Below, one piece after another: positions 45,093 through 59,574 of a DNA stretch of 64,000 nt (the stretch's first letter is position 1; each line of letters begins with the position of its first letter). Origin of the DNA: an uncultured Bacteroidales bacterium (lineage in GTDB: Bacteria; Bacteroidota; Bacteroidia; Bacteroidales; FEN-979); the NCBI GenBank assembly GCA_903925275.1, contig CAIYES010000233.1, positions 1,547 to 65,546 on the forward strand. The letters run 5' to 3'. The position numbers and the translations under genes are program-made. The notes below the pieces were generated by a model that searched no databases, was not told the DNA's origin, and worked only from the letters and a program-made list of their open reading frames with translations.

Positions 45093-46712
45093 CTATTTAA
45101 TCTCCTCAATTTTCCTGATAATCCGCGACAGCGCTTCGTTAAGCTTTGCTTCAGGTGTGATGATGTTAAACCCTTCCCAGAAAGCATCATTTCCGTTGTA
45201 TGGTTGATCCGAAAATACAATACCGGGCTTCATTAATTCCTGTTTCTGAAATTTCACAACCTCAGAGGTGTCAATGTTACAGGTGGCGAGTTCAAGGAAG
45301 GTATTAAAGTGATCGGACGATAAGTGATGCCTCAGACGCGTTATTACCTCCAGATCACAGCGGGCATGCTGAAGGTAATACCTGCCGTTGAAGGAGGTAT
45401 AGCTGAGGGAATAATTTATCTTTTTGAGTTTAACAATCAGCCGGCTGCTTTTCTTCAGCACAAGGTCTTCAGCCGCAAGATCAAGATAGGCCGGGTTAAT
45501 TTCGAAATCAGCGCCCAGGATGGCAAAACCTTCCTTCTCAATATAAACTGTTCCGGTATACAACGCTTTTTTCAGGTCGGTATTTTGCACAAATGTAATG
45601 GCATAAGCATCCTTTGCATTATAGGATACCAGGTCGGAATATTTATATATGTATTCAACAGGTGGTGTTTGATCAAGGAAACCCGGAATACATTTGACAA
45701 TATCAAGCTGCAGGGCTGATTGAACCCCGGCTTTAAGTTTCAGGAAAACAGTATCGGAGGGATTTGCATTCTGAACTTTTCTCGACTTAAGCAGCTTTAC
45801 CTGGTCGGAATGTTCGCTTACATCATATGGTGATTTATATACCTTAAAAACGGCCTCCGAATAGCTGATAAATTTATTGTTTTTCTGCACCCCTTCGCGA
45901 TAAAACGTTGTAAGATAAGCTGGATCAACGGCATAGTTCTTCTTTCGTTGATCCATTGCTTTCTCGATAATTAAAGTCGGATCAATGTATCGTATAATAA
46001 CTTCCTGGATGGAAATTACCCTGCGGTCGAGGTAGAGGTCAACCTGCTGCTCGTCGAGCAACTGAACCGGAATCTGCTGGCTCATATATCCCAGGTGCGA
46101 AACAACCAAAGAGGTTCCGATCAGAGAATCTGGAATTCTGAGCAAAAAAAAACCATCACTGTTTGTAATGGTGCCAATGTTCTCCTCAACGATTCCAATG
46201 GTAGCAAACGGTATCGCTGTTTTGTTTTCGTTATCGAAAATGTGCCCTTTAATTACAATATATTTGATTACATCCATTCCGGGAACAACCGGTTGTTTCT
46301 TGATTACGGGAAGTGCGTCATTTTTCGTCTGATAAATCAAAATATGTTTACCCAGTACTTTATACGTAAGTCCGGGAGTTGAAAGTATGTTATCGAGCAC
46401 TTTATTCAGCGGCTGATTATCGGCATGCAGTTTAACATGTTTATCGCTTTCAATGGTTTCACTGTTATAAATAAAAAAACAGTCCGCTTTTTGCGATATC
46501 AGGTTTAATGCTTCGTACAGCGTTGTATTTTGTTTGGGGATGCTGATGGTTTTTTCGAGCAGCGGGATCTGACCGAAGGCTGAATTCAGCGAAAACAGTA
46601 AAATGCCTGCACTGAATATACAAGCTTCAAAAAATGAAAGCCCGGGGCTGTATTTGCAAAACTTAATTCTGTCTTGCGCCTTCTTTATTTTCGAAAAATA
46701 CAACTTCGCCAT
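45093..46712 (-). CDS. STN (secretin/TonB N-terminal signalling) + carboxypeptidase-regulatory-like domain protein lacking plug and barrel
   Basis: LYEALNLISQKADCFFIYNSE...NQPLNKVLDNILSTPGLTYKVLGKHILIY is STN-like. IKGHIFDNENKTAIPFATIGI...TNSDGFFLLRI is CarbopepD_reg-like. The C-terminal about 300 aa is paralogous to 48276..49526. The track start overlaps fecR by 50 nt, so the true start is uncertain. Confidence 0.65.
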   Translation of the reverse strand: MAKLYFSKIKKAQDRIKFCKYSPGLSFFEACIFSAGILLFSLNSAFGQIPLLEKTISIPKQNTTLYEALNLISQKADCFFIYNSETIESDKHVKLHADNQPLNKVLDNILSTPGLTYKVLGKHILIYQTKNDALPVIKKQPVVPGMDVIKYIVIKGHIFDNENKTAIPFATIGIVEENIGTITNSDGFFLLRIPDSLIGTSLVVSHLGYMSQQIPVQLLDEQQVDLYLDRRVISIQEVIIRYIDPTLIIEKAMDQRKKNYAVDPAYLTTFYREGVQKNNKFISYSEAVFKVYKSPYDVSEHSDQVKLLKSRKVQNANPSDTVFLKLKAGVQSALQLDIVKCIPGFLDQTPPVEYIYKYSDLVSYNAKDAYAITFVQNTDLKKALYTGTVYIEKEGFAILGADFEINPAYLDLAAEDLVLKKSSRLIVKLKKINYSLSYTSFNGRYYLQHARCDLEVITRLRHHLSSDHFNTFLELATCNIDTSEVVKFQKQELMKPGIVFSDQPYNGNDAFWEGFNIITPEAKLNEALSRIIRKIEEIK

Positions 46713-47694
46713 TGATGGTTTGGCTTTTCAGGTTCAGTGTCATACAAATAAGCTCGGTCATTGTTTCGGCTGTTTCGTTCTGGAAAGTAACGGTAAGCTT
46801 ATGTTTTCCGATTTCATTATCCGATAACACAAAGGTAGTGTTGAAATTCCGATTCAGCACATGAATAATATTCTGAAGTGTTTCATCTTTAAATTGCATG
46901 CGCTGTTTATACCAGGAAGTTGTTTCGTTTGCAATATGCTTTGACTTCACCAGGTTGTTTTCAACGGTTGAAATCTTTTCGCCGGCTACAACCATTTCGC
47001 TTTTAGAAGGATCCGTTTTCAACGTCACTTTCACCTTTCCCCGGTCGACAAAGAGTTCGAAGCCATGACCATTTTTTGTTTTCACATTAAAAGCCGTTCC
47101 CAGAACCTGTATCAGCGCCTCATCAGTTTCAATGATAAAAGGCCTGTCGGGATTGGGTGCAATATCGAAAAAAGCCTCCCCTTTCAGCTCGACATTGCGC
47201 GATCCGGATTTGAATTCCTCCGGAAAAGAGAACAATGAATTTTGAGCGATATAAATAACCGAGCCATCAGCAAGGGTTTTGATAAGGGTGGTAACACCAT
47301 TGCCTGTATTAAGCTGGACCATTTCAACTGCCGGCTTACGGCTCATCATCATATAAAAACCTATACCGGTGCCCACCAGAATCAATATGGCAGCAGCAAT
47401 TTTTAACAGTGCGGGCATTAACCTGATTTTCGAAGCATCCTGCTGTACAGGAATCAAATTCTCCTCCTGAAGGCGACCATGCAGTTTATCCCAGGCTTTG
47501 CCGGTATGGGGAGATTTGGCTGTATGATATCCTTTCATGGCGGACCATTGTTTTTTCAATTTTTCAATCCTGATTTCATCTTCTTCCGAGACGGAAATTT
47601 CTTTTTCAAAAGCGCACGACTCCGTTTCGTTCATTTCACCACTCAGATATCTGGCGAGTTTTTCTGTCTGTTGTTTGTTTCTATCTGTTTTCAT
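46663..47694 (-). CDS. FecR-family anti-sigma factor
   Basis: N-terminal cytoplasmic region, a single TM (ALLKIAAAILILVGTGIGFYMM), a periplasmic FecR domain (VELKGEAFFD...FIIETDEALIQVLGTAFNV), and a 4-nt overlap with the sigma gene. Confidence 0.8.
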   Translation of the reverse strand: MKTDRNKQQTEKLARYLSGEMNETESCAFEKEISVSEEDEIRIEKLKKQWSAMKGYHTAKSPHTGKAWDKLHGRLQEENLIPVQQDASKIRLMPALLKIAAAILILVGTGIGFYMMMSRKPAVEMVQLNTGNGVTTLIKTLADGSVIYIAQNSLFSFPEEFKSGSRNVELKGEAFFDIAPNPDRPFIIETDEALIQVLGTAFNVKTKNGHGFELFVDRGKVKVTLKTDPSKSEMVVAGEKISTVENNLVKSKHIANETTSWYKQRMQFKDETLQNIIHVLNRNFNTTFVLSDNEIGKHKLTVTFQNETAETMTELICMTLNLKSQTINGEVVFFENKEGARQN

Positions 47695-48251
47695 AACGCT
47701 CCTTCTCTGGTATACTCTTTCAACGTTTTTCTGAACAGTTGCAGTGCTTTTCCCATATCGGCCTCAACGGTTTTCACCGAAATGGATAAGATGAGGGCAA
47801 TTTCGCGATATTTCATCCCTTCGAACCGGTTCATTCGGAAAATCCGGGAGCAACGTTCCGGCATTTTCTTGAAAGTTGCGTTTATTAAATTGCCTAAATC
47901 GTTCAACTCTACATCTGTTTGCACATTTACCGGCATCTTATCCTGAGATTCGTTGAAAATATGTTCTGCATAACTTTTCCGAACGGCAAGGTGTTGGAGA
48001 TAATGAAGTGCATTGTTTCTGATTGAATGATACAAATAAGCGTTCAGCGACAACTTCGGACTGAATGATTCCCTGTTTTTCCAAAAATTATAGAAAAACT
48101 CCTGAACTAAATCTTCCGCTGTATCCATATCGTTCAGGAGTTTATCTGCATGATGGCACAAAGGCCCGTAGTATTTGGTAAAAAGCCGTTCAAATTCCCT
48201 GATGTCGCCACCTTGTATTTTCTTCTGTATATATAAATCAGTAAGGTTCAT
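47691..48251 (-). CDS. ECF-type RNA polymerase sigma-70 factor
   Basis: 186 aa. Region 2 (FERLFTKYYGPLCHHA...AEDLVQEFF) and region 4 (RIFRMNRFEGMKYREIALILSISVKTVE). Confidence 0.85.
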   Translation of the reverse strand: MNLTDLYIQKKIQGGDIREFERLFTKYYGPLCHHADKLLNDMDTAEDLVQEFFYNFWKNRESFSPKLSLNAYLYHSIRNNALHYLQHLAVRKSYAEHIFNESQDKMPVNVQTDVELNDLGNLINATFKKMPERCSRIFRMNRFEGMKYREIALILSISVKTVEADMGKALQLFRKTLKEYTREGAL

Positions 48252-48275
48252 AGGGATTTGATAAGCGTTGCGGAT

Positions 48276-49526
48276 CTATTTCTTCTTGCTTTTCGCAAGC
48301 TTTTTTATAGCATTTTCGATGGAATTATCCGGTTCAATGATATTGTATTCACCCCAGAAATCAACATCTGCAAAATCCTGTACTTTCTCTGTAAAAACCA
48401 TGTTCGATTTGAACACATCCTGGTTTGCAAATTTAGCGATATTATTCTCCCGCCTGTCGGTAATGGCTACCTCCGACATAACGGTATAATGATTTTTGAA
48501 CAGTCGTCTCTTCCAGTCACAGGTGAATTTCAGATCAACACGCACATAGTTGAGGAAGTATTTGCCGTTTTGTTCTTTATAGGTTACAAGGTAACTGGTC
48601 GATGTCGGCATAAAGTGCAAGCCCATTGGCTTTTTCTGAATAAAAACGCGCGCAGCCTTGGCTTCATCTTTGAGATCGAGGCTGAATTCAGCGCGGGTTA
48701 TGGCCATATTTTCCTGGGAAATGAATAGCTTCCCAAAATAAAGCGGATCTTCGTTTACAACAATTGGCGAGAAGTTGATTACCCAGTTTATTTTATTTTC
48801 GATATTTACCATCGATCCAAATTCGAACTGATAATTATCAAGGTTATCCAAAGCTATGCTGAGGTCGGTGTTTTTAACAATATCGATCAGCATTGCAACA
48901 TTAGGGCCACCTTGCAACTGAACCATCAGGGTGTCGGCTTTTTTCACATTGGAACCTTTTCGTCCCTTGTAAATTTTCACCTGGTCGTCCTGATTACTTG
49001 AATAAGGCGCCTTATAGATATCAACCACAGCTTCGGCAATTGAAACATAATCGCGACGCTGCCTGATTGACTCACGGTAAAAACCAGTCATCATGTTGGG
49101 TGTTTCACTGAAGTTCTTTCTGATGTTTCTGATTGCCATTTCCACAATTCCGCGTGCATCTCCAGGCACGATGGAAATTTCCTTAAGCTGGATTGGCTGA
49201 AGGTCGAGATAGAATGTTTTATCTTTTCCGACCGCTTCGCTGATTTTAAACTTCGCCGTTGTATAACTTACATGCGATACTTCAAAGTATTCGGCATTAA
49301 GTGATGTGTTCACTTTTAAGGTGAATTCCCCGTCGGAGTTTGAAACTGTCCCAATGCCCGTTTTGGGTACAGAAATAGTGGCATAAACAATTTTGTCACC
49401 GGTTTTGGAATCCTTTAACTGTCCGCTGACAGTGACAAATGAATTTTGTGATAAAGCTGTACCATATACGGCAATAAACAGCAATAATATGCCTGTACGG
49501 ATCAAATTCTTTTTGAATGTTCTCAT
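48276..49526 (-). CDS. Carboxypeptidase-regulatory-like domain protein, paralogue of the C-terminal two thirds of 45093..46712
   Basis: VSGQLKDSKTGDKIVYATISV...SNSDGEFTLKV is CarbopepD_reg-like. The remainder is collinear with the other protein (FYRESIRQRRDYVSIAEAVVDIYKAPY vs FYREGVQKNNKFISYSEAVFKVYKSPY). Confidence 0.65.
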   Translation of the reverse strand: MRTFKKNLIRTGILLLFIAVYGTALSQNSFVTVSGQLKDSKTGDKIVYATISVPKTGIGTVSNSDGEFTLKVNTSLNAEYFEVSHVSYTTAKFKISEAVGKDKTFYLDLQPIQLKEISIVPGDARGIVEMAIRNIRKNFSETPNMMTGFYRESIRQRRDYVSIAEAVVDIYKAPYSSNQDDQVKIYKGRKGSNVKKADTLMVQLQGGPNVAMLIDIVKNTDLSIALDNLDNYQFEFGSMVNIENKINWVINFSPIVVNEDPLYFGKLFISQENMAITRAEFSLDLKDEAKAARVFIQKKPMGLHFMPTSTSYLVTYKEQNGKYFLNYVRVDLKFTCDWKRRLFKNHYTVMSEVAITDRRENNIAKFANQDVFKSNMVFTEKVQDFADVDFWGEYNIIEPDNSIENAIKKLAKSKKK

Positions 49527-49758
49527 GGCTGATGGTTTTGAAGGTTTTCTGTTTTTGAGGGATTACATCTATAAGAAACCCCAGCCTGAAAATACCCTAT
49601 GAAAATATTGCTTTTTTTCTTCCCGGTATACAATCCTGCCCAATTTTCTACCTTCAGGATGAGCCCGGATTACTTGAAAGTGGTTGATTTATCGGGGAAA
49701 AGACCTTTTCCTTCCAATTCAGCTTAACGCCTTTTTAATTCAGCAGAACCTGAACCTG

Positions 49759-50478
49759 TCAATCAAAATTTCCATCAATATATTCCTGGAACTTTTCTCT
49801 GTATTGATCGCTTACAGGGATATATACCTTACCGTCGAAAACAATTCTGTTCCGTTCTATCACTGAAATCCTTTTAAGATTTACGATGAATGACCGGTGA
49901 ACCCTCATAAACCGGCCGGAAGGAAGTTGTTCTTCGATCGTCTTCATGCTCATCTGCGTCATCACGGGGGCACTGTTGATCAAATGAATCTTGATATACT
50001 CGTGCTGGCTCTCAATGTACTTTATGTCATCCAGTTCGATTCGGATGAGTTTGTATTCTGATTTTACGAACAAATGGCTGGCTGTAGTCTTGACGCTTTC
50101 CTTCAGGCTGTTAGCCTTTAAATCTATCAGACTTTTCACCTTGTTGGCCGCTTTCAGGAAATTGTTGTAGGTGATGGGTTTTAATAAATAGTCTGTGGCA
50201 TCTACCTGGAACCCTTCCACGGCATATTCGCTGTAGGCGGTAGTAAATACGATATAGGGTTTGTCGGTCAGTGATTTTACAAATTCCAATCCGTTCAGGT
50301 CGGGCATATTGATATCAATGAATATGAGCTGTATCGCACGGTTGTTGATAATTTCCATTGCCTCGAATGCACTCCGGCACTCGGCCACCAGTTCCAGAAA
50401 TGGGGTTTTCTGAATATATGCTGATATTTTTTTTACTGCCAGGGGTTCATCGTCAATGGCGATGCAGGAAATCTTCAT
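49759..50478 (-). CDS. LytTR-family response regulator
   Basis: Receiver domain (CIAIDDEPLA...IFIDINMPDLNG) plus a LytTR DNA-binding domain (IKYIESQHEYIKIH...FMRVHRSFIVNL). Confidence 0.9.
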   Translation of the reverse strand: MKISCIAIDDEPLAVKKISAYIQKTPFLELVAECRSAFEAMEIINNRAIQLIFIDINMPDLNGLEFVKSLTDKPYIVFTTAYSEYAVEGFQVDATDYLLKPITYNNFLKAANKVKSLIDLKANSLKESVKTTASHLFVKSEYKLIRIELDDIKYIESQHEYIKIHLINSAPVMTQMSMKTIEEQLPSGRFMRVHRSFIVNLKRISVIERNRIVFDGKVYIPVSDQYREKFQEYIDGNFD

Positions 50479-51551
50479 ATTGGAATTTTAAGGTCAACTT
50501 CAAATTCACTTTCTTTATCCTGAATGTTCAACTGGAAATTATCCTCATATAATAACTTTAAACTCTCTTTTATGTTATCAAGACCGATTCCTGAATATTC
50601 GCCCTGGTAATTTGCTGCAATTTTATGCTTGCTGTTTTTAATAATACACGTCAGGAAAGCGCTGTCAATCCGGAGTTCAAAATAAATATACGATTTCTGC
50701 GGATAACTCACACCATGCTTAAAAGCATTTTCAAGCAACGAAATAAAAAGCATCGGGGGTATTTTTGTATCAGGAACCTTTTCAGGAATCACAACAGTAA
50801 CTTCCACCTCATCGGAATGCCTGAGTTGCATCAGTGAAATAAAACTGTTGATGAATTCGATCTCCTTTTTCAATTCGATGGTGTTTTGAGCCGAATCATA
50901 AAGCAGGTACCGCATAAGTGTTGAAAGCCGTACGACAGCATCCTGGGCCTTTTCCGAATCTATTTCAATAAGTGAATGTATGTTATTCAGGGTGTTCATA
51001 AAAAAATGGGGACTTACCTGGTGCCTCAGTAAAGCGAGGTTGGTTTTAAGTTGCTCCTTCTCTGCATCCTTTCTAAGACTCTCTTCACTCAACCATTTCG
51101 CCATTAGTCTGATCGTGGTACCGGCACCAACGATTAAAATGCAAATGATGAGATTGTCCGCAAAAACCATGAAGGGCGGTTTTGAATTTGGGGAATTCAG
51201 GTCAGGCTGTCTGAACCCGTCGGGTGAAAAATCAGTACCGGGATCAGCAAATGAAAAAAATCCCGGACGGGCAATCATATTGATCGCTATCCCCATGATT
51301 ATCAATAAAGAAACCGACACAAAGTAGTACAGGTATCTCTTTTTCAGTAGTAAACGCGGCACCAGAATATAAACATTCACCAGGAAAATAATGAGAAACC
51401 CGGAAAGGTTTACCCAATGTCCTGCCATGGTATTCCAATTAAGATGTCCGGAGCCGCGTTCGCTGAAATAGGGTACCGAGAAAACGAGCGCCCATATTAA
51501 AACGTAGAACAAAACTTCAATTTTCCTGCTGCTTGGCAAATGTGCTTTCAT
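50475..51551 (-). CDS. LytS/YehU-type sensor histidine kinase
   Basis: An N-terminal multi-TM region, then the His_kinase signature LRHQVSPHFFMNTLNNIHSLI and an HATPase region. There is a 4-nt overlap with the regulator gene. Confidence 0.85.
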   Translation of the reverse strand: MKAHLPSSRKIEVLFYVLIWALVFSVPYFSERGSGHLNWNTMAGHWVNLSGFLIIFLVNVYILVPRLLLKKRYLYYFVSVSLLIIMGIAINMIARPGFFSFADPGTDFSPDGFRQPDLNSPNSKPPFMVFADNLIICILIVGAGTTIRLMAKWLSEESLRKDAEKEQLKTNLALLRHQVSPHFFMNTLNNIHSLIEIDSEKAQDAVVRLSTLMRYLLYDSAQNTIELKKEIEFINSFISLMQLRHSDEVEVTVVIPEKVPDTKIPPMLFISLLENAFKHGVSYPQKSYIYFELRIDSAFLTCIIKNSKHKIAANYQGEYSGIGLDNIKESLKLLYEDNFQLNIQDKESEFEVDLKIPI

Positions 51552-51574
51552 TTCACAAAGTTATTTAATTTATC

Positions 51575-51629
51575 CACCTCATCCCCTGCGCCCCTTCTCC
51601 TTAAGGAGAAGGGGACGGGGGTTGAGGTA
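51575..51629. repeat. GC-rich nested palindrome (REP-like); probable terminator between the TBDT and kinase genes
   Basis: Perfect hairpin CCCCTTCTCC-TTAA-GGAGAAGGGG at 51591-51614, nested in an imperfect outer stem CACCTCATCCCC.../...GGGGGTTGAGGTA. Confidence 0.75.
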
Positions 51630-51648
51630 GCATGATGGTTCATCATTT

Positions 51649-54006
51649 CTAAAATTGTATTTTATAAATAAAGTTCGGAAAAAACCCCAGTTGGTATGTC
51701 GTACTAATAGACCTGCTTCTGTCATCGTAACTCTGTGAGAATACGTTGTTATTGTTCGTGACATTTTGCAAGTCAATGGAAAACGATTGAGACAGTTTTT
51801 TCATCGGGCTGTTCAGGGTAAATCCTACCTTAAAATCCAACCTGAAATAATCCGGATATGTGCTTGAATAGGCATATTCATCACCTTTCAGCACCTCCCT
51901 GCCTCTGACCTGGGACGCCGCTAAATCTATCGGGGTATAATATCGTCCGCCGGCATACGTAACTTTGATGTCCGTTGTGATGGCATTCCTTTTTTCCTTG
52001 CCAAGCTTCCACTCTTTCCCTGCCAGGAAGTTGGCCACATATCTCCCGTTAAATGCCGTGTTCCGCTCTATTCCGTCACTGGCGGTGTATTTTGACTGGT
52101 AAAGCGAAGCAGTAAATAAGCCATAGTACCCCCTGCTGAAGAACTTCTCAACAGTTAGTTCAACGCCGTAGTTTCTGCCGGTGCCGGTGTTTGTCAGGCT
52201 GTCTTCAAGGTCGGTTTTAAAACTTGCCCCGGTATTCAGCATGGAGTAACTGCTGGGGTAAGTATTGACAGGCACATTCACGAGATACTGATAATAGGCT
52301 TCAATTTTCAAACGCCAGTCTTTGAAGGGTTGCACATCATATCCCAGGACAAAATGATGGCTTTTGGTAAAACCCAGCTCCAGGTTATCATAATTATATG
52401 AACCATCTGGATTGGGCGTCTGTAAAAAATAGACATTCAACGGTTGGGTTTGCGAATGCAACCCATAGCCAAAGCTGAAGCTGTTCTTATTATTCAACTC
52501 GTACTTTAACCCGATCCGGGGTTCAAGGGAGAATGAATTATTCAGGAAGAACTGCTGGGCATGGAGGCCTGCATTCAGCGTGAGTTTTTCGGTGATGTTG
52601 TATTTAAGATGAGCATAAACCTGGGCCAGCGTGGTGTAGCTGTTGTAATCCCAGATTTGGATCCATCCTTCACCTTCCCGCCTTCTGTTCCTGTTGTACA
52701 GGTACAGATTCATATATTCTGCCTGCATTCCGGCTTTAAAAAACAGCCTGGAATTGATTTTCAGATTGTAGTTGGTAATGAATTCATAACCTGTTCTGGC
52801 AACCTTATTTTCCTCTTTGCTGTATGAATTCCTTAATGAATCCAACCCGTAGTTCAACTGGTTATTCCCCGAATAATTGATGCCGATCGTAGAACTGATG
52901 AAAGATTTACTGTTGATCTGCTTGAAGTGTTTCAGTCCCCCGATGGCTATCTTACTCTTGAAATCTGTTTGTTGTCCACCGCCATATAATTCATTCGAAC
53001 TACCTCCTTCTATTGCAATGCTACTGGCAGCCAGGATGCCAAACAGGGTGAACCTGCCAAGTTTTGTATCCCCGCTGTTTATTTTGAATGAAAGATCCTG
53101 GTAGGTGGGCGTAGAAGTAGTGCCTATGTTTATTCCCATGGCCTGGGCAATACCGGCAAGCGAATAACGGTAACCAATTAAATACGATGAACCGTTCGAT
53201 TTGCTGATGGGCCCCTCCGTCATGGCCTCAATTCCGGTTGTTACCCCAAGCTGGACAGTGGTTTCCCGTTTTTGTGTATTCCCGTTTCTGAAGCCGATGT
53301 CGAAAACTCCGGAAATCGCATTGCCATATTCTGCCGGCCAGGCTGAGGTGAAGAAATCGGAGCTCTTCAGCATATTGGTGTTCAGTGCGCTCACTGCACC
53401 GCCTGTGGTGCCTACCGATGCAAAATGGTTGGGATTGGTTGCATCCATGCCATCGATGCGCCACAACACCCCAACAGGAGAATTACCGCGGATCACAATG
53501 TCATTTCTGCTGTCGTCGGTGGCGCTTACGCCGGCAAAATTCGCAGCCAGCCGTGCCGGATCGCTTCGCCCTCCGGCAAACCGGTTCACCTCTTCCATGG
53601 AGAATGTGCGGCCGCTGATGGTTGATAAACTGTTGATGGTTTTGTCTTTACTGTTAGCCGTAACAACGACTTCATTCAGGGACTTAATATCCTCCTCCAT
53701 CGCAATGTCAAGGATTGTCTCTTTCCCTGAAGTCACCACGACGCTGGATACAAATACATCCTTGTAGCCGACAAAGGAGAATTTCAACTCATACCTGCCT
53801 GGCAACACATCGGGAATAACATAAATCCCCTTTTCATTGGTTACCGCTCCCCTTTTATCGGCTTCATTCATTATTTGAACAGTGGCGCCAGGAAGAGTTG
53901 TTTGAGAAAGCTTATCAATAACCACACCTCTTATTTTCTGCCTGTTATTCTGAGCATAAGATAAATGAGCTATTATCAGTAAAATAATCAAAAAGTATCT
54001 TTTCAT
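51649..54006 (-). CDS. TonB-dependent receptor with carboxypeptidase-regulatory-like N-terminal domain
   Basis: IRGVVIDKLSQTTLPGATVQI...NEKGIYVI is CarbopepD_reg-like. Plug motifs are NEVVVTA, DPARLAANFAGV, IRGNSP and YGNAISGVFDI. Terminal aromatic residue. Confidence 0.85.
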   Translation of the reverse strand: MKRYFLIILLIIAHLSYAQNNRQKIRGVVIDKLSQTTLPGATVQIMNEADKRGAVTNEKGIYVIPDVLPGRYELKFSFVGYKDVFVSSVVVTSGKETILDIAMEEDIKSLNEVVVTANSKDKTINSLSTISGRTFSMEEVNRFAGGRSDPARLAANFAGVSATDDSRNDIVIRGNSPVGVLWRIDGMDATNPNHFASVGTTGGAVSALNTNMLKSSDFFTSAWPAEYGNAISGVFDIGFRNGNTQKRETTVQLGVTTGIEAMTEGPISKSNGSSYLIGYRYSLAGIAQAMGINIGTTSTPTYQDLSFKINSGDTKLGRFTLFGILAASSIAIEGGSSNELYGGGQQTDFKSKIAIGGLKHFKQINSKSFISSTIGINYSGNNQLNYGLDSLRNSYSKEENKVARTGYEFITNYNLKINSRLFFKAGMQAEYMNLYLYNRNRRREGEGWIQIWDYNSYTTLAQVYAHLKYNITEKLTLNAGLHAQQFFLNNSFSLEPRIGLKYELNNKNSFSFGYGLHSQTQPLNVYFLQTPNPDGSYNYDNLELGFTKSHHFVLGYDVQPFKDWRLKIEAYYQYLVNVPVNTYPSSYSMLNTGASFKTDLEDSLTNTGTGRNYGVELTVEKFFSRGYYGLFTASLYQSKYTASDGIERNTAFNGRYVANFLAGKEWKLGKEKRNAITTDIKVTYAGGRYYTPIDLAASQVRGREVLKGDEYAYSSTYPDYFRLDFKVGFTLNSPMKKLSQSFSIDLQNVTNNNNVFSQSYDDRSRSISTTYQLGFFPNFIYKIQF

Positions 54007-54012
54007 TATTTT

Positions 54013-55248
54013 TTAGTTGATATTTCTTACTAGACGTACAAAGTTTAAAACCCTTTCTTCTCCCTGGCCTGTTCCTGCTGTCTTCTTGTCGAAACGCACT
54101 GCACCGGCGCCGTGCAGGTCTTCACCATTTCCGTCTTCCGCCCTGCCAAAAGCGACATACCATGCAGATGGATAAGCTCCGTTTGCTATAGAAATAGCCG
54201 AGGTACTTGTCCAATAGTAGGGATAGTCAGCCTTTCCTCCATCGTTTAGAATACCGGTACAACTGAATAGTGCATTTATTGCGGGTCCTACATTGGCTGC
54301 GTTTGTTGCACCAGGCGAGCGTGTGTAATCCACAAGACTTTGAAGTTCTTTTGTATTCGGTAACCGCCAATCGTCGTGCCCCAGGTAATTTGCGTTATTC
54401 TGCGTTTGAGCATAAGCCAGTGCGTGTTCCCAATCCATACCCGAACCGTTGTCGGTCTGTTGCCACATGAGGCCGGTAGCCAAATCAGAAATGGTTCCGT
54501 CGCCGTTGTTCTGGAATAAATTGACGCCATACGCAAGATTGCCACGCACACAACGAACAAAGTGCATTGGCCCTTCAGCAATACTGTAAGCTTTTATATG
54601 TCCGGTGCCAAAATTCACACCAAAGGCAAGTTCTGCGTCAGGCGTATTCCCACTGATATTGCCCATTACTCCGGTGTATTTGTCACTGCTCCAGAATATC
54701 GCATGACTGAGGTCTTGTTCATCTGTATATTTAATGTCAAAATATTCTGTATCTATATAAGGCCAGCCGACACTTACATTCCATAAAGAGTATAGCTCCT
54801 TGATGGTAGGCACCCGCCAATCGTTGTAACCGCCATAGTTTTGATTGTTCAGATTGTCAACCTCAGTTTGAGTTTCGGCCCAGTAATACATACCACCGAA
54901 AGTTGGTTTTTCATAGCTTTTCTGCCATGTTAAACCAGTAACTTCATCTTTTACAGTAAGTCCATCGCTGCTTTTGGTGTAAACGGGAGTTATATGTTCA
55001 AACTGGGAATCCTGTCCGTAAAATGCTGCACCGAAACCAGGGGTGATAATGTTTCCTGCACTGTCCCAGCATTTGGTCTGACTTGTACCGACAACCGGGA
55101 AACAGCCTGCATAGGCCGGTTCACGCGGAACTACCTGCAAATCTCCGCTAACGGTTGTTTTATCTTTTTTACACCCGCAGGAGGTGAAAATAATTCCGGA
55201 GATCATGATCATGGTTGTAAAACCGGGAAACGATTTCGATTTTTTCAT
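54013..55248 (-). CDS. Lipoprotein with two DUF1566 (Lcl C-terminal-like) domains
   Basis: Lipobox FTSC. Duplicated signatures GYNDWRVPTIKELYSL and GHDDWRLPNTKELQSLVDYTR. Confidence 0.75.
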   Translation of the reverse strand: MKKSKSFPGFTTMIMISGIIFTSCGCKKDKTTVSGDLQVVPREPAYAGCFPVVGTSQTKCWDSAGNIITPGFGAAFYGQDSQFEHITPVYTKSSDGLTVKDEVTGLTWQKSYEKPTFGGMYYWAETQTEVDNLNNQNYGGYNDWRVPTIKELYSLWNVSVGWPYIDTEYFDIKYTDEQDLSHAIFWSSDKYTGVMGNISGNTPDAELAFGVNFGTGHIKAYSIAEGPMHFVRCVRGNLAYGVNLFQNNGDGTISDLATGLMWQQTDNGSGMDWEHALAYAQTQNNANYLGHDDWRLPNTKELQSLVDYTRSPGATNAANVGPAINALFSCTGILNDGGKADYPYYWTSTSAISIANGAYPSAWYVAFGRAEDGNGEDLHGAGAVRFDKKTAGTGQGEERVLNFVRLVRNIN

Positions 55249-55274
55249 TGCTGAATTTTTTATTTATTGTGGAG

Positions 55275-55357
55275 CAAAAGTATTGTGCAGGAAATCTTTC
55301 AAGAAATGGAATCGCCAGATAGTAGGGTTGTGTCACCCTTTCGAGGTTTTTTATCAC
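55275..55357 (-). promoter_or_regulatory. Candidate promoter: TACTTTTG -7 box plus three TC(A/G)C cores phased at 21 bp
   Basis: Plus-strand CAAAAGTA at 55275-55282. Cores at 55312, 55333 and 55354. Same layout as 58035-58116. Confidence 0.55.
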
Positions 55358-55426
55358 TGAATGGTTTTGGGAAATGGATGCCTTTCGAAAATAACAGGCA
55401 ACACGGAAGAATTCCAGACGCTGTAT

Positions 55427-56404
55427 TTACTCTTTAGGCAAAAGCATGATACTCCCTGCTTCAATTTTCAGAGCTTTGCCTTTCATCTTGATGAAGACAT
55501 TGATCGAACTCAGATTTGTAACCAGGGTTTTGTCTGCTGAAAATTTGAGATTTTTAAAGGCATTGATATAATCCACTAATCCTATTTGTGTTGTGTAGTA
55601 TATATCCGGATTTTTGGAAACCATCTTGAAAAACTTTTCTACTTCTGCCCATTTGTTTCCAGTTCCTTCATATTCCCAACTATGTCCCCACACATAAAAC
55701 AGGGCCAATGAATTCGCTTTAAGAAAATCAGTGGTAAGCTGATAAAATTGTGCTAATTCTCTTCTGTCATTTGCAGTGTCATTGGGTATATAATTTGTTT
55801 TTCCGAATAAATGAATGGTAGGTTGCCATCTAAGAAAATCAGTTGGCATACTAAAATTGTATGTATCACCTACTGTTCTGGCATATTCAATACCTAAACC
55901 GGTTATTGCCTCAACTACAAAATCGTTGGTATTGCCAAATGGATACGACATTCCACGAACGGGATAGCCCATCAATCGTTCCAATTCTTTTCTATCTTCC
56001 ACCACTTCATAAATCACGTCAATTTTCGACAAAGAGGTCAGACTTGGGTGATTTGCCGTATGGCCGGAAACTTCGTGGCCTTTGTATAGGTTTTTAACCT
56101 CTTCTTTGGTGAGATAATCTTTTGTTCCGAGTTTGTTGGAATTAAGATGAAAAGTCCCGATAAGACCATACTCATTCATCAATTTCACCAAATGCCTGTC
56201 GGCTTCATTTCCATCATCATAACTCAAAATCAAAGCTTTGGATTTACCCTGTGGGAAAAGCATTTCTACTGGAATACTGCTCTTTTCGAGAGCAGTATTG
56301 GTTTGAGCATTTGCGGAATTGATAACAGTAATCAATGCGAGGATAACAATAATTAATTTTGATTCGCTTCTCATCTTATAATAATTTGATTTCAGAGGTC
56401 GCAT
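55427..56404 (-). CDS. Polysaccharide deacetylase (NodB homology / CE4)
   Basis: LILSYDDGN (motif 1) and GHTANHPSL (motif 2). Signal peptide; the start may instead be the second Met (56374). Confidence 0.8.
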   Translation of the reverse strand: MRPLKSNYYKMRSESKLIIVILALITVINSANAQTNTALEKSSIPVEMLFPQGKSKALILSYDDGNEADRHLVKLMNEYGLIGTFHLNSNKLGTKDYLTKEEVKNLYKGHEVSGHTANHPSLTSLSKIDVIYEVVEDRKELERLMGYPVRGMSYPFGNTNDFVVEAITGLGIEYARTVGDTYNFSMPTDFLRWQPTIHLFGKTNYIPNDTANDRRELAQFYQLTTDFLKANSLALFYVWGHSWEYEGTGNKWAEVEKFFKMVSKNPDIYYTTQIGLVDYINAFKNLKFSADKTLVTNLSSINVFIKMKGKALKIEAGSIMLLPKE

Positions 56405-56456
56405 GAAATTTTCATTTTAAAATGGTGGTTTTTAATCAACCGGTTCCAACGAAAGC

Positions 56457-58007
56457 CTATTCTTTTATTAACTTTTTAACTTCAAAAGTGTTTCCGTATT
56501 GAAGTTTTACTAAATAAACCCCGGTTGCAAGGTTATTGGTCTGTATCATGATTTTGTCAGCTAAACTGCCTTTGTGCACGATCTGACCGATGGAATTTAA
56601 AAGCTCAAAGTTTGCCATTCCCCTGTTTCCTTTCATTTCAATTGTAAGTTCGCCAGTTGCAGGATTTGGATAAATGTTAAACATATTGAAGTCTTTATTT
56701 TCATTTATTCCGGTTGAAGATCCATTTCTTACCAAACGCACATAATTGTATATCCTGACGGCATCGCCCTGAGGAGCATTGGGATTGTAATATCCATTTC
56801 CATTATGCGTGTATCCCGCAAAGCTTCTTGGTTTCGGATCGCTTCGCTGACATCCGGCGCCATGTATATCAATCCACCCACCAAAAGGGGGCATATAGCC
56901 CATAGCTCTTCCGAAGCAAACATAGGTGGCGCTTGCTCCGTTTGTCTGCGCTTGCGAAGAAAAAGTAGTGTTGCTCCAATACCAGGGATAATCTGCTACA
57001 CCTCCTTCATTGGTAATCTGGGTGCAGTTGAACATCGGGTTTATGGCTGCAGAACTGCTTGTTGCCGGAGAACGGGTATAGTCAACGATACTTTGCAACT
57101 CCTTGGTATCGGGTAATCGCCAATCCGAATATCCTGCATAGATAAAAGCTTCAGCATAACTCAATGCGTCCTTCCATAAAACGCCTGTCCCGTTATCGTT
57201 TTGCATCCACATCAGCCCGGTAGCATTATCAGTAATGGTTCCGTTCCCGTTGTCAACGAATTGATTTGTCCCATAGGTAGTATTGCCGCGAACATACAAT
57301 ACATAGAAATGCTTTGATTGTCCGTCTTCCGGAACAGGGGAAGTGGTTGGATATCCTTTAATACGTCCATCAATAAAATTGAACCCGAACAAAGTTTCCT
57401 GCCCATTCATGGTTGTGCTTACATATTTCGTAGCGGATGCAATTTGACCATCAATAATCCTTTCAGTTCCAAGGTCGCCGTGTGCCAGTGAGTTTACATC
57501 ACCGAAACCGACAGAGAAATATGTCGTATCAATATATTTTATACAAGTAGACGGTGGTGGGCCTGGTTCTGCTCCAAAAAACATGGCAATGGAATATAAC
57601 TCTTTAATAGCAGGTAAACGCCAATCATGATAACCTGCCGTGCTACATGTTGCAGCGCTATCCACTGCCTCATAATACTTCAGTTTATCATAGAAATTAA
57701 TTGCTCCATCACCGTTTCTGTCCTCGGTTTGCTGCCACATCAGCCCGGTTAAATTGTCGGTTACTGTGCCATCACCATTGTTGGTATAAGATCGCATGTT
57801 TCCGGGATGATTCGAATTCTGTCCGTAGAATGCCTGCCCCGGAGTGGGCATTGTTATTGCAACCGTTGTGTCGTAAGATATTGTCTGACCTGTTCCGACA
57901 ATTGGATAAGTATTGGTTTGGCTATATCCAATAATATTTATCATTGTCACAATGCAAAAGGTTGCAATAACATTGACTGTGAAGGATTTGTTTGATAATT
58001 TTTTCAT
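56457..58007 (-). CDS. Secreted protein with two DUF1566 domains and a T9SS C-terminal sorting domain
   Basis: GYHDWRLPAIKELYSI and GYSDWRLPDTKELQSIVDYTR. C-terminal NIYPNPATGELTIEM...GVYLVKLQYGNTFEVKKLIKE. Confidence 0.75.
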   Translation of the reverse strand: MKKLSNKSFTVNVIATFCIVTMINIIGYSQTNTYPIVGTGQTISYDTTVAITMPTPGQAFYGQNSNHPGNMRSYTNNGDGTVTDNLTGLMWQQTEDRNGDGAINFYDKLKYYEAVDSAATCSTAGYHDWRLPAIKELYSIAMFFGAEPGPPPSTCIKYIDTTYFSVGFGDVNSLAHGDLGTERIIDGQIASATKYVSTTMNGQETLFGFNFIDGRIKGYPTTSPVPEDGQSKHFYVLYVRGNTTYGTNQFVDNGNGTITDNATGLMWMQNDNGTGVLWKDALSYAEAFIYAGYSDWRLPDTKELQSIVDYTRSPATSSSAAINPMFNCTQITNEGGVADYPWYWSNTTFSSQAQTNGASATYVCFGRAMGYMPPFGGWIDIHGAGCQRSDPKPRSFAGYTHNGNGYYNPNAPQGDAVRIYNYVRLVRNGSSTGINENKDFNMFNIYPNPATGELTIEMKGNRGMANFELLNSIGQIVHKGSLADKIMIQTNNLATGVYLVKLQYGNTFEVKKLIKE

Positions 58008-58034
58008 GGCTAAACTTTTTACTTATTAAGAAAG

Positions 58035-58116
58035 CAAAGGTACAGCGCAGGAAATCATTTAAAAAAGCAATCACCATAAACCTTGGATAAATCACCCAAT
58101 AGTGGTTTTTTGTCAC
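58035..58116 (-). promoter_or_regulatory. Candidate promoter: TACCTTTG -7 box plus three TCAC cores phased at 21 bp
   Basis: Plus-strand CAAAGGTA at 58035-58042. TCAC at 58071, 58092 and 58113. About 100 nt is collinear with 55275-55357. Confidence 0.55.
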
Positions 58117-58266
58117 TGAATGATTTTGCAATACTGGTGATAACCTGTTGTAATCGGTGATTATCTGCGTTTCCACTTAGCGGTATACGAGTTATCCGGG
58201 TGCCAACAAGGTAATTCCAATGTGATTTCACCTCATCAATAATGAGTTTGGTCTAAAAAACCAAAA

Positions 58267-58344
58267 TCACCTCACCCTGACCCTCTCCTAAAGGAGAGGG
58301 AATTCCCCTTCTCCTGAGGGAGAAGGGGTTAGGGGTTGAGGTCA
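58267..58344. repeat. GC-rich double-hairpin palindromic element (REP-like)
   Basis: CCCTCTCC-TAAA-GGAGAGGG at 58281-58300 and CCCCTTCTCC-TGAG-GGAGAAGGGG at 58305-58328, inside outer arms TCACCTCACCCTGA / TTAGGGGTTGAGGTCA. The second stem is identical to the one at 51591. Confidence 0.8.
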
Positions 58345-58478
58345 ATTGAATTTTTTTCATTCATTACGAATCATACTGTTTTTATACTGCACTCAATAAT
58401 GATTTCTGACTATTTATTGTTATTTTTGACGAATTAAAAACCCTGAATAATCTACATATTACAAACATTTTCAATGCG

Positions 58479-58677
58479 GTCCGGTAAAACTTTATGTTAC
58501 TTTCCAAAATCCCTGTCAATATTGCGTCCCTACGGGACTTAACATCGAATGGGTCATTTCTTGATCTACCGATATTTTGTCCCTGACAGGACAGTCCCGT
58601 AGGGACAAGATATTGGTAGAAAGCAAGTTGAAGAACAATAGACAGTCCCGTAGGGACGGTATAAAATTTAACCGGAC
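58479..58677. mobile_element. 199-bp hairpin-rich element with imperfect 17-bp terminal inverted repeats (MITE-like)
   Basis: GTCCGGTAAAACTTTAT at 58479-58495 matches the reverse complement of 58661-58677 at 15 of 17 positions. GTCCC-loop-GGGAC hairpins lie at 58526, 58594 and 58645. A 19-bp long-range stem pairs 58566-58584 with 58601-58619. Confidence 0.6.
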
Positions 58678-58758
58678 AATAATGATGCGTTTTATGCTGA
58701 GAATCAGCAGATAAAGAAAGTGAAATTTTTTAAAATTCCTAAACTAAAATCAAAAAAG

Positions 58759-59574
58759 ATGAATAGACTGTTTTTTTTCATTGTACTCATGTTGACAACC
58801 ATTGCAAGTGGGTTTGCCCAGGAAGATGCCGAAGGATGTAAAGACCATGCTCTGTTTACACGCATGCCGGGATACTATATTTCAGAGTGTACGGTGAACT
58901 ATAATCAGCTCGATTTTTATGACAGCAAGGGTCAGGATGTAAAATTGGAAGGAAATCTCACCTACGCCTGGTACATATTTAACCTGGAATCAGGAAAAAC
59001 AGAACCAAGTTATTTTCAGATCATTAAAAATTATGCCAACGCCATTATTAAAATCGGAGGTACTAAAATTTATGAAGAAAACGGGTTAGGATGCTATGAA
59101 TTGAATAAAAACGGAAAAGTTTATAAAATAAAAGTTGCCGCTACCAACAATAGTGATATTATACTGAATGTACTTGAAATAGAGGCCATGAAACAAGATA
59201 TTTCTGCAAATGAAATGCTTGACGCCCTGAACAAAGATGGCTTCATTTCACTTGATATTCTTTTTGAAACCGGAAAATCGAAAATTCAAAACGAATCACT
59301 TCCGATCATCGACCAGGTTTACCAGTTGATGAAGCTTGATTTAGCGCTTAAAATCAGTGTTGAAGGCCATACCGATAATGTTGGTGATGCTGCAAGCAAT
59401 AAAAAACTTTCTACCGCCCGGGCCAAAGCGGTTATGGACGCACTGATTGCCAAAGGAATTGAGAAAACAAGGTTGTCATATACTGGTTGGGGACAAGAAA
59501 AACCAGTTGCCGATAACAGAACCGATGAAGGAAAATCGAAAAACAGGCGGGTGGAAATAATCAAGAAGCCATAA
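58759..59574 (+). CDS. OmpA-family (OmpA/MotB C-terminal domain) protein
   Basis: C-terminal FETGKSKI...VEGHTDNVGDAASNKKLSTARAKAV...NRRVEI. Signal peptide. Start moved to MNRLFFF (ATG 58759). Confidence 0.8.
   Translation: MNRLFFFIVLMLTTIASGFAQEDAEGCKDHALFTRMPGYYISECTVNYNQLDFYDSKGQDVKLEGNLTYAWYIFNLESGKTEPSYFQIIKNYANAIIKIGGTKIYEENGLGCYELNKNGKVYKIKVAATNNSDIILNVLEIEAMKQDISANEMLDALNKDGFISLDILFETGKSKIQNESLPIIDQVYQLMKLDLALKISVEGHTDNVGDAASNKKLSTARAKAVMDALIAKGIEKTRLSYTGWGQEKPVADNRTDEGKSKNRRVEIIKKP

Follow-up and report, generated by a model that had tools for sequence, protein, structure and literature searches.

The DNA analysed here is a 64,000-nt stretch from an uncultured Bacteroidales bacterium (Bacteroidota, FEN-979; assembly GCA_903925275.1, contig CAIYES010000233.1, positions 1,547 to 65,546 of the forward strand), and we refer to the whole of this stretch as the window. 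It carries a gene module in which two promoters, P1 and P2, each present three direct repeats phased at 21 bp. We consider it probable, from sequence comparisons, that both sets of repeats are operators for a LytTR response regulator encoded by the same module (50478..49759). The genes were called from Pfam and NCBIfam profile matches on the window proteins, and all genes of the module lie on the minus strand. The P2 unit opens with a DUF1566/Lcl_C gene, paralogue B (56457..58007; 516 aa), whose product ends in a C-terminal sorting domain of the type IX secretion system (T9SS), followed by a polysaccharide deacetylase gene (55427..56404; 325 aa) that is syntenic in many loci. The P1 unit opens with DUF1566/Lcl_C paralogue A (54013..55248; 411 aa), whose N-terminus is lipoprotein-like (...FTSCGC). 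It is followed, as in nearly all loci, by the gene of a TonB-dependent-receptor-like outer-membrane protein with CarboxypepD_reg and Plug domains (51649..54006; 785 aa). Further along the same strand lie a syntenic LytS/YehU-type sensor histidine kinase (50475..51551; 358 aa) and the response regulator that we propose as the binder of the repeats (49759..50478; 239 aa, Response_reg and LytTR domains).

An earlier reading of this DNA, made without database searches (the sequence-only reading), had noticed the LytS/LytTR pair at 49759-51551, and the profile searches confirmed its nature. The kinase belongs to PF06580 (LytS/YehU family, 80 bits) and has a GHKL domain and a hydrophobic N-terminal half; its match to HATPase_c_5 was sub-threshold only. 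The regulator matches PF04397 with 80 bits in addition to PF00072, and its residue D55 is a likely candidate for the phospho-acceptor. Its best NCBIfam match is BtsR with 148.8 bits, under the cut-off of 246, and LytR reaches 101 against a cut-off of 375. By these profile scores, the regulator is therefore not an equivalog of BtsR or LytR, nor a BtsR orthologue. The DUF1566 proteins matched Lcl_C domains only, plus weak adhesin-like NCBIfam models, and a PDB sequence search with DUF1566-A returned no match and hence no functional clue.

On the plus strand, the repeats of P1 start at positions 55310 (AATCGCCA), 55331 (TGTCACCC) and 55352 (TATCACTGAATG), and those of P2 start at 58069 (AATCACCA), 58090 (AATCACCC) and 58111 (TGTCACTGAATG). 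Their TCAC or TCGC cores lie at 55312/55333/55354 and 58071/58092/58113, so that the spacing is 21/21 bp in both promoters; all coordinates and strings of the sequence-only reading proved exact. Read on the gene strand, the distal repeat R1 of P1 is ATTCAGTGATA (55352..55362), with a GTGAT core predicted at -86..-82 relative to the transcription start site (TSS). The middle repeat R2, AAAGGGTGACA (55331..55341), follows 21 bp from R1 with its core predicted at -65..-61, and the proximal repeat R3, ATCTGGCGATT (55310..55320), follows 21 bp from R2 with its core predicted at -44..-40. The R3 core of P1 is GCGAT in the window and GTGAT in most orthologues. In P2 the corresponding units are ATTCAGTGACA (58111..58121), ATTGGGTGATT (58090..58100) and TTATGGTGATT (58069..58079), with cores predicted at -85..-81, -64..-60 and -43..-39, respectively. 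The earlier description of a 4-nt core was right as to position and too narrow as to extent: the conserved unit spans about 10-11 nt, with the consensus ATTnrGTGAYA. Since 21 bp corresponds to two helical turns, the three sites are expected to lie on one face of the DNA.

Downstream of the repeats, both promoters present a -7 box of the Bacteroidota sigma-A type (TAnnTTTG) suitably spaced from the start codon: TACTTTTG in P1 (55276..55283, minus strand) and TACCTTTG in P2 (58036..58043, minus strand). The flavobacterial sigma-A -7 box spans -12..-5 (PMC9723704), and taking the boxes as -12..-5 places the predicted TSS at about 55271 in P1, with a 5' untranslated region of about 23 nt, and at about 58031 in P2. 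The 4-nt core is 29 nt (P1) or 28 nt (P2) from the -7 box, the end of the R3 pentamer is 28 nt or 27 nt from it, and the box is 26 nt or 27 nt from the ATG, which reproduces the distances first reported for the locus (28-29 nt and 26-27 nt). The regions upstream of the two DUF1566 genes were also said to be collinear, and they are so over about 125 nt with a single 1-nt indel. An ATTTT(C/T)TG sequence, which differs from the consensus -33 word TTTG, is conserved about 17-20 nt 5' of the -7 box. Its ATTTT, a -33-like element, begins 3-4 nt after R3, and in P1 the proximal repeat adjoins a conserved CATTT(T/C) -33-like element at 55300-55309. Relative to the predicted start sites, both operators are positioned directly upstream of the -35-equivalent element.

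Several other sequences around these promoters were considered and set aside. A 10-mer between the -33 and -7 elements (GATTTCCTGC) was treated as lineage-specific, as its conservation is limited to close relatives and a further copy lies within a coding region. Upstream of the P2 operator, two copies of GGTGAT (58136-58141 and 58156-58161) lie 20 bp apart in the opposite orientation, and both resemble the R3 unit (ctGGTGATa and tcGGTGATt). We rejected this inverted pair as a part of the operator or as a divergent promoter, because it is not conserved and gives no weight-matrix signal; no suitably placed -7 box was found for it on the plus strand. A reading of the region as an RNA element is unsupported, since an Rfam scan of 49000-59000 returned only sub-threshold matches, all on palindromes, and the position of the repeats upstream of the predicted start sites also speaks against it. 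Finally, a generic scan for sigma-70 promoters and terminators gave counts at or below the shuffle expectation, and such a scan is uninformative for Bacteroidota promoters.

We then compared the repeats across related loci, a phylogenetic footprinting that the sequence-only reading had put forward as a check. Relatives of protein A were sought in one genome per species, which yielded 80 loci (54-92% identity) and 95 upstream regions. Three GTGAY-like cores (nnGTGAY units) were found in 40 of the upstream regions, with a spacing of exactly 21/21 in all but one of them (39/40). The 29 non-redundant promoters left once near-duplicates had been removed align gap-free from 14 nt upstream of R1 to past the -7 box. 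Conserved in this alignment are the three cores, of which R1 forms the best-conserved unit, a TT pair 3-4 nt upstream of each core, the ATTTT after R3 and, at a fixed position, the TAnnTTTG box (at least 80% conserved), while the spacers vary.

The gene order A, TonB-like protein, kinase and LytTR regulator is held in nearly every locus of sufficient length, and the regulator is syntenic with operator-bearing genes in about 25 loci. Gene B and the deacetylase gene are present in variable order. The operator always heads whichever gene opens the transcription unit, and this gene is A or B in most loci; it stands ahead of B where B directly precedes A (loci L029, L033, L040 and L057). In two loci (L009, 4195-5981, and L046, 4239-5961), the operator precedes an open reading frame (ORF) of 131 aa without Pfam match, which is followed by a CotH-family protein in L009 and by a DUF1566-B-like ORF in L046. 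In another (L035, 3282-5252), an insertion sequence with an rve integrase lies within the first DUF1566 gene, with the operator in front. The arrangement with two units and two operators is found in the window and its closest relatives (L004, L006, L007, L059, L110 and L111). We also observed counterparts of protein A with 69-92% identity, and of the TonB-like protein with about 70-95% identity, in metagenome-assembled genomes (MAGs) labelled Bacteroidales, Saprospiraceae, Flavobacteriaceae, Ignavibacteria, Cloacimonadales, Chloroflexia and Clostridia. This likeness across phyla suggests horizontal spread of the module, or else binning or labelling errors. Neither of the two operators described here accompanies the more distant copies of protein A (54-65%) present in Verrucomicrobiota, Desulfuromonadales, Myxococcales and Spirochaetes.

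The divergence of the two paralogues offers a further comparison. Proteins A and B are 41% identical (BLASTP), and their genes are 33% identical at four-fold degenerate sites of conserved residues, which indicates that these sites are essentially saturated. The operators of P1 and P2 are 70% identical, and their 15 core positions are 80% identical. Because of this excess over the four-fold sites, the likeness of the operators is not that of a recent neutral duplication, an outcome that had been named at the outset as one that would undo the idea. Similarly, between the window and 27 orthologous A promoters the core identity (73-93%) is mostly above the four-fold identity of the adjacent gene (48-73%).

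A second class of promoters was found in ten loci without GTGAY repeats (L015, L016, L017, L020, L024, L032, L045, L048, L063 and L068). Upstream of gene A, these loci present CAAyTCAA repeats exactly 21 bp apart, with a degenerate third copy (ATTCAG-like) 21 bp farther upstream; the distance from the proximal 8-mer to the -7 box is constant at 33 nt. In those loci that include the downstream genes, kinase and regulator belong to another clade: these regulators (for example L024, 11597-12352) are 251 aa long, match the same Pfam domains (Response_reg and LytTR) and share only 23-28% identity with that of the window. The distal unit of the window type, CATTCAGTGAY, itself holds the ATTCAG word of the third copy of class 2, which hints that the two promoter classes share ancestry.

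The operator word follows the clade of the regulator. The 20 loci with a window-type regulator (69-88% identity), including five outside the training set, score 24-72 bits with the GTGAY model. The five loci with a divergent regulator score below 0 bits with this model and present 14-16 matches out of 16 to the CAAyTCAA pair immediately upstream of A. No exceptions were found among the loci that have both parts; one locus, L021, presents neither motif. The similarity of protein A to its window counterpart is about the same in the two classes (74-88%), and the swapped promoter and the swapped regulator are about 3.6 kb apart, with the conserved A and TonB-like genes between them. Class-2 loci occupy at least four places in a neighbour-joining tree of protein A built without bootstrap, and both classes occur in MAGs labelled Ignavibacteria, Saprospiraceae and other Bacteroidota. 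That the word changes with the linked LytTR protein while the geometry is kept would be expected if this protein reads the repeats. We lean, by a small measure, toward the view that a horizontally spread outer-membrane module, made up of lectin-like DUF1566 proteins and a TonB-dependent-like protein, has come under the control of two non-orthologous LytS/LytTR pairs, probably on more than one occasion, with the three-site operator word swapped each time and both the 21-bp geometry and the distance to the promoter kept.

The units have the repeat length (about 8-11 nt), the separation (11-13 nt) and the period (about 20-22 bp) of LytTR operators. Indeed, as far as sequence can tell, geometry, position, linked regulator and co-variation together are, on every computational count, those of a LytTR operator. 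In each operator, three units of about 10-11 nt would follow one another head to tail, with their centres at about -84, -63 and -42 of the predicted TSS and the proximal unit touching the weak -33 element of a Bacteroidota sigma-A promoter. The membrane-bound LytS/YehU-type kinase would sense an envelope or extracellular cue and phosphorylate the regulator, which would then fill the three sites cooperatively, recruit RNA polymerase and activate both promoters. LytTR sites usually lie 4-11 bp upstream of the -35 element and mediate positive autoregulation (PMC6193735), and it is because of this usual position that we think the regulator probably activates both units. From P2, it would drive DUF1566-B, a T9SS cargo, and the polysaccharide deacetylase; from P1, the DUF1566-A lipoprotein and the TonB-dependent-like outer-membrane protein. 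The gap between the TonB-like and kinase genes, on the same strand, is about 25 nt in most loci, and read-through from P1 may reach the kinase and regulator genes and provide positive feedback. A conserved TAnnTTTG box, TAACTTTG (51556..51563, minus strand), lies 4 nt upstream of the kinase ATG, and the same arrangement (TAnnTTTG-N4-ATG) is found before the kinase in at least 11 orthologous loci (L004, L006, L008, L009, L014, L018, L026, L029, L033, L055 and L057). We predict this box to be an internal promoter that would give a leaderless basal mRNA of the kinase and regulator genes. Two-component systems with positive autoregulation are usually laid out in this way, with a basal and an induced level of expression.

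Several points weigh against this interpretation of the repeats. The core is only 4-5 nt long, and the best offset for 10-nt self-matches within the window (offsets 12-32 tested) is 16 in P1 and 32 in P2, not 21. The related promoters are homologous, so that their agreement is not independent sampling, and the number of independent swaps of regulator and operator rests on an unbootstrapped tree. The interpretation does not account for the extra inverted GGTGAT copies (58136 and 58156), which orthologous B promoters lack. A 64-nt GC-rich palindrome between the TonB-like and kinase genes of the window (51571-51634), an insert that the orthologous loci do not have, may block or reduce read-through and weaken the feedback. 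Finally, the -33-like element lies next to the R3 core (at about -44..-40), and CoxC, a LytTR protein that binds three direct repeats overlapping the -35 element, is a repressor (PMC11347149).

By itself, the window is weak or marginal evidence. Because offset 21 is not the top self-match within it, significance must come from comparative data, and because the two promoters are homologous, the agreement of P1 and P2 counts once. With the related loci included, the repeats are clearly non-random, as judged from their alignment and scores. Over the 95 upstream regions, offset 21 is the sole strong peak of self-similarity (16.6 observed versus 2.7 shuffled). A position weight matrix was trained on other genomes only and used to scan both strands of the 64-kb window (128 kb): the repeat segments of the window score 61-62 bits, and the next best position anywhere in it scores 0.3 bits. 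The strict pattern GTGAY-N16-GTGAY-N16-GYGAT likewise occurs only twice in the window, at P1 and P2, and never in 100 shuffles.

The position of R3 and the precedent of CoxC would suit a linked regulator that binds the repeats and represses, keeping both promoters shut until a signal arrives, as CoxC does. We regard this alternative as unlikely. The operator reaches -86 and leaves the -7 box and the start site uncovered, the -33 element is non-consensus (TTTC/TTTT), as is typical of activator-dependent promoters, and the majority of LytTR response regulators are activators with a binding site just upstream of -35.

It is less probable again that the operator is real but serves another DNA-binding protein encoded elsewhere, for instance a global regulator, with the linked LytTR protein acting on other targets. 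The shortness of the GTGAY core would allow this, and the DNA inspected comprises the 64-kb window and, from the other genomes, short flanks. However, a linked regulator of another clade goes with another repeat word, while the two classes overlap in structural genes and host taxa; no regulator other than the LytS/LytTR pair is conserved with the module, and a 21-bp direct-repeat geometry is a signature of LytTR proteins. Furthermore, the operator was found in this module only. Besides the weight-matrix scan of the window, we scanned 241 million metagenome records for a strict pattern of the three cores followed by N27-28 and TAnnTTTG, a genome-wide motif search having been part of the original proposal. 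This matched 95 DNA stretches, 35 of which were non-repetitive and showed extended similarity. In 33 of these 35, a DUF1566 A or B gene follows within about 25-30 nt; the other two (L122 and L162) present the same extended promoter, but their contigs stop short of a downstream gene. All other matches fell in satellite arrays of 7-nt or 21-nt units or were isolated chance occurrences that lacked extended similarity. Neither scan, of the window or of the metagenomes, yielded other members of a regulon, and the operator appears confined to the DUF1566 module. The sigma factor of the extracytoplasmic function (ECF) type and its FecR-like partner encoded nearby (46663-48251) were also considered as regulators of the repeats and rejected: other loci show no synteny between this pair and the module, and the motif does not resemble an ECF promoter.

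There is very little to be said for intrinsic DNA curvature or UP-like elements, in which A-tracts phased at two helical turns would stimulate the promoters constitutively and would not be specific to any protein. A conserved A5-6 tract does follow R1, and 21 bp does equal two helical turns; however, the A-tract occurs at R1 only, the conserved letters are GTGAY and the flanking TT, class-2 promoters keep a different specific word at the same phase, and the co-variation with the regulator clade would be left unexplained. The least probable alternative, that the promoters are alike merely through a tandem duplication, without constraint, and that the 21-bp repeats arose by chance, draws on P1 and P2 being homologous and thus one observation, and on offset 21 not being the top self-match in the window, and it is already refuted by the phasing kept in 39/40 promoters of other genomes, by the weight-matrix scores (61-62 bits versus a background maximum of 0.3) and by the divergence comparison (saturated four-fold sites at 33% versus operators at 70% and cores at 80%).

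The reading of the repeats as operators of the linked regulator agrees with what is described for LytTR proteins. Their sites are 9-11 nt repeats with 11-13 nt spacers (PMC4847170), and the geometry given in the sequence-only reading agrees with this source and with PMC6193735. Its 21-bp period holds, and its count differs from the canonical pair, as three repeats are present here. A precedent for this layout is given by the LytTR domains of RcoM1 (Paraburkholderia xenovorans) and CoxC (Afipia carboxidovorans), which bind three evenly spaced 8-bp repeats. These direct repeats are imperfect, measure about 8 nt and are separated by 12-13 nt, which gives a period of about 20-21 bp; like the repeats of the window, they lie at a promoter (PMC11347149). 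In contrast to the window regulator, RcoM1 and CoxC are one-component proteins in which a haem-PAS or MHYT sensor is fused to LytTR, and not phosphorylated response regulators. Their repeat words (TTCNNGCA and TTNNNGCN) are unlike those of the window, they belong to Proteobacteria with -35/-10 promoters, and CoxC overlaps the -35 element and represses. It is well supported that the predicted operator belongs to a known LytTR kind, with its three-site layout having a precedent in RcoM1 and CoxC.

Closer in protein architecture are BtsS/BtsR (YehU/YehT) and YpdA/YpdB of E. coli, which combine the same PF06580 kinase family with the same receiver and LytTR domains as the window pair. BtsR and YpdB recognize sites that lie upstream of a transporter gene and consist of direct repeats of 9-11 nt separated by 11-13 nt (PMC4847170). 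They differ in having two repeats, other words and pyruvate-transporter targets, whereas the predicted targets in the window are surface DUF1566 and TonB-like proteins, and the promoters of the window are of the Bacteroidota -33/-7 type, unlike those of the E. coli systems. The HdrRM/BrsRM-type systems have operon-proximal repeats with 11-13 bp spacers, located 4-11 bp upstream of -35, and positive feedback, with repeat words poorly conserved between systems (PMC6193735); they consist of a stand-alone LytTR protein and a membrane inhibitor, whereas the window encodes a kinase and a receiver-LytTR regulator.

The parallel first drawn for these repeats was with AgrA, ComE and PlnC/D of Firmicutes, which bind 9-bp direct repeats with a 12-bp spacer just upstream of -35 and positively autoregulate the operon of kinase and regulator. 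This likeness stands for the geometry and fails for the type of circuit. The Agr, Com and Pln kinases are of the AgrC/ComD type (HPK10), whereas the window kinase is of the LytS/YehU type, and the window presents three repeats in a Gram-negative Bacteroidota. We found no signalling-peptide, processing, ABC exporter or AgrB-like gene among the genes of the module, where short peptide ORFs were not searched exhaustively. A peptide quorum-sensing circuit was rejected on these grounds, namely the lack of peptide and export genes in the module and the different type of kinase.

LytTR regulators are abundant in Bacteroidota. Our literature search found no paper joining DUF1566 and LytTR and no LytTR operator defined in Bacteroidota; full-text matches for LytTR, direct repeats and Bacteroidetes were incidental. 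If the prediction is true, these would be, as far as we know, the first LytTR operators to be defined in Bacteroidota and Ignavibacteriota, and a further case of three-site LytTR operators beyond RcoM and CoxC. It would provide an operator consensus and a promoter architecture that can be tested, for a module that many MAGs of the Fibrobacteres-Chlorobi-Bacteroidetes (FCB) group from freshwater, sediment and wastewater contain, and the inducer of the module would give a handle on the function of the very conserved pair of DUF1566 and TonB-like proteins. Added interest comes from one structural module being served by two interchangeable pairs of regulator and operator. Such a natural swap of a regulator/operator cassette would offer two apparently orthogonal LytTR specificity pairs of identical geometry, which would be useful for understanding how LytTR proteins read DNA and as parts for Bacteroidota genetics.

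Finally, some neighbouring features of the window deserve mention. Directly downstream of the regulator, on the same strand (46663-49526), lie genes for a CarboxypepD_reg protein (416 aa), an ECF sigma factor and a FecR-like anti-sigma factor. These three genes show no synteny to the module in other loci and probably form a separate trans-envelope signalling unit. The GC-rich palindrome mentioned above is present in two copies, at 51571-51634 and, upstream of P2, at 58264-58345, with the form CCTCAACCCC...CCCCTTCTCC-TNAN-GGAGAAGGGG...GGGGATGAGG. It looks like a repetitive extragenic palindromic (REP) element or a miniature inverted-repeat transposable element (MITE), and it may have the role of a terminator or insulator. 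Three copies of a 13-nt palindrome, GTCCCGTAGGGAC, one of them inverted, occur at 58526-58657 (shuffle expectation 0.04), within the 540-nt gap between P2 and a divergent OmpA-family gene (58720-59574).

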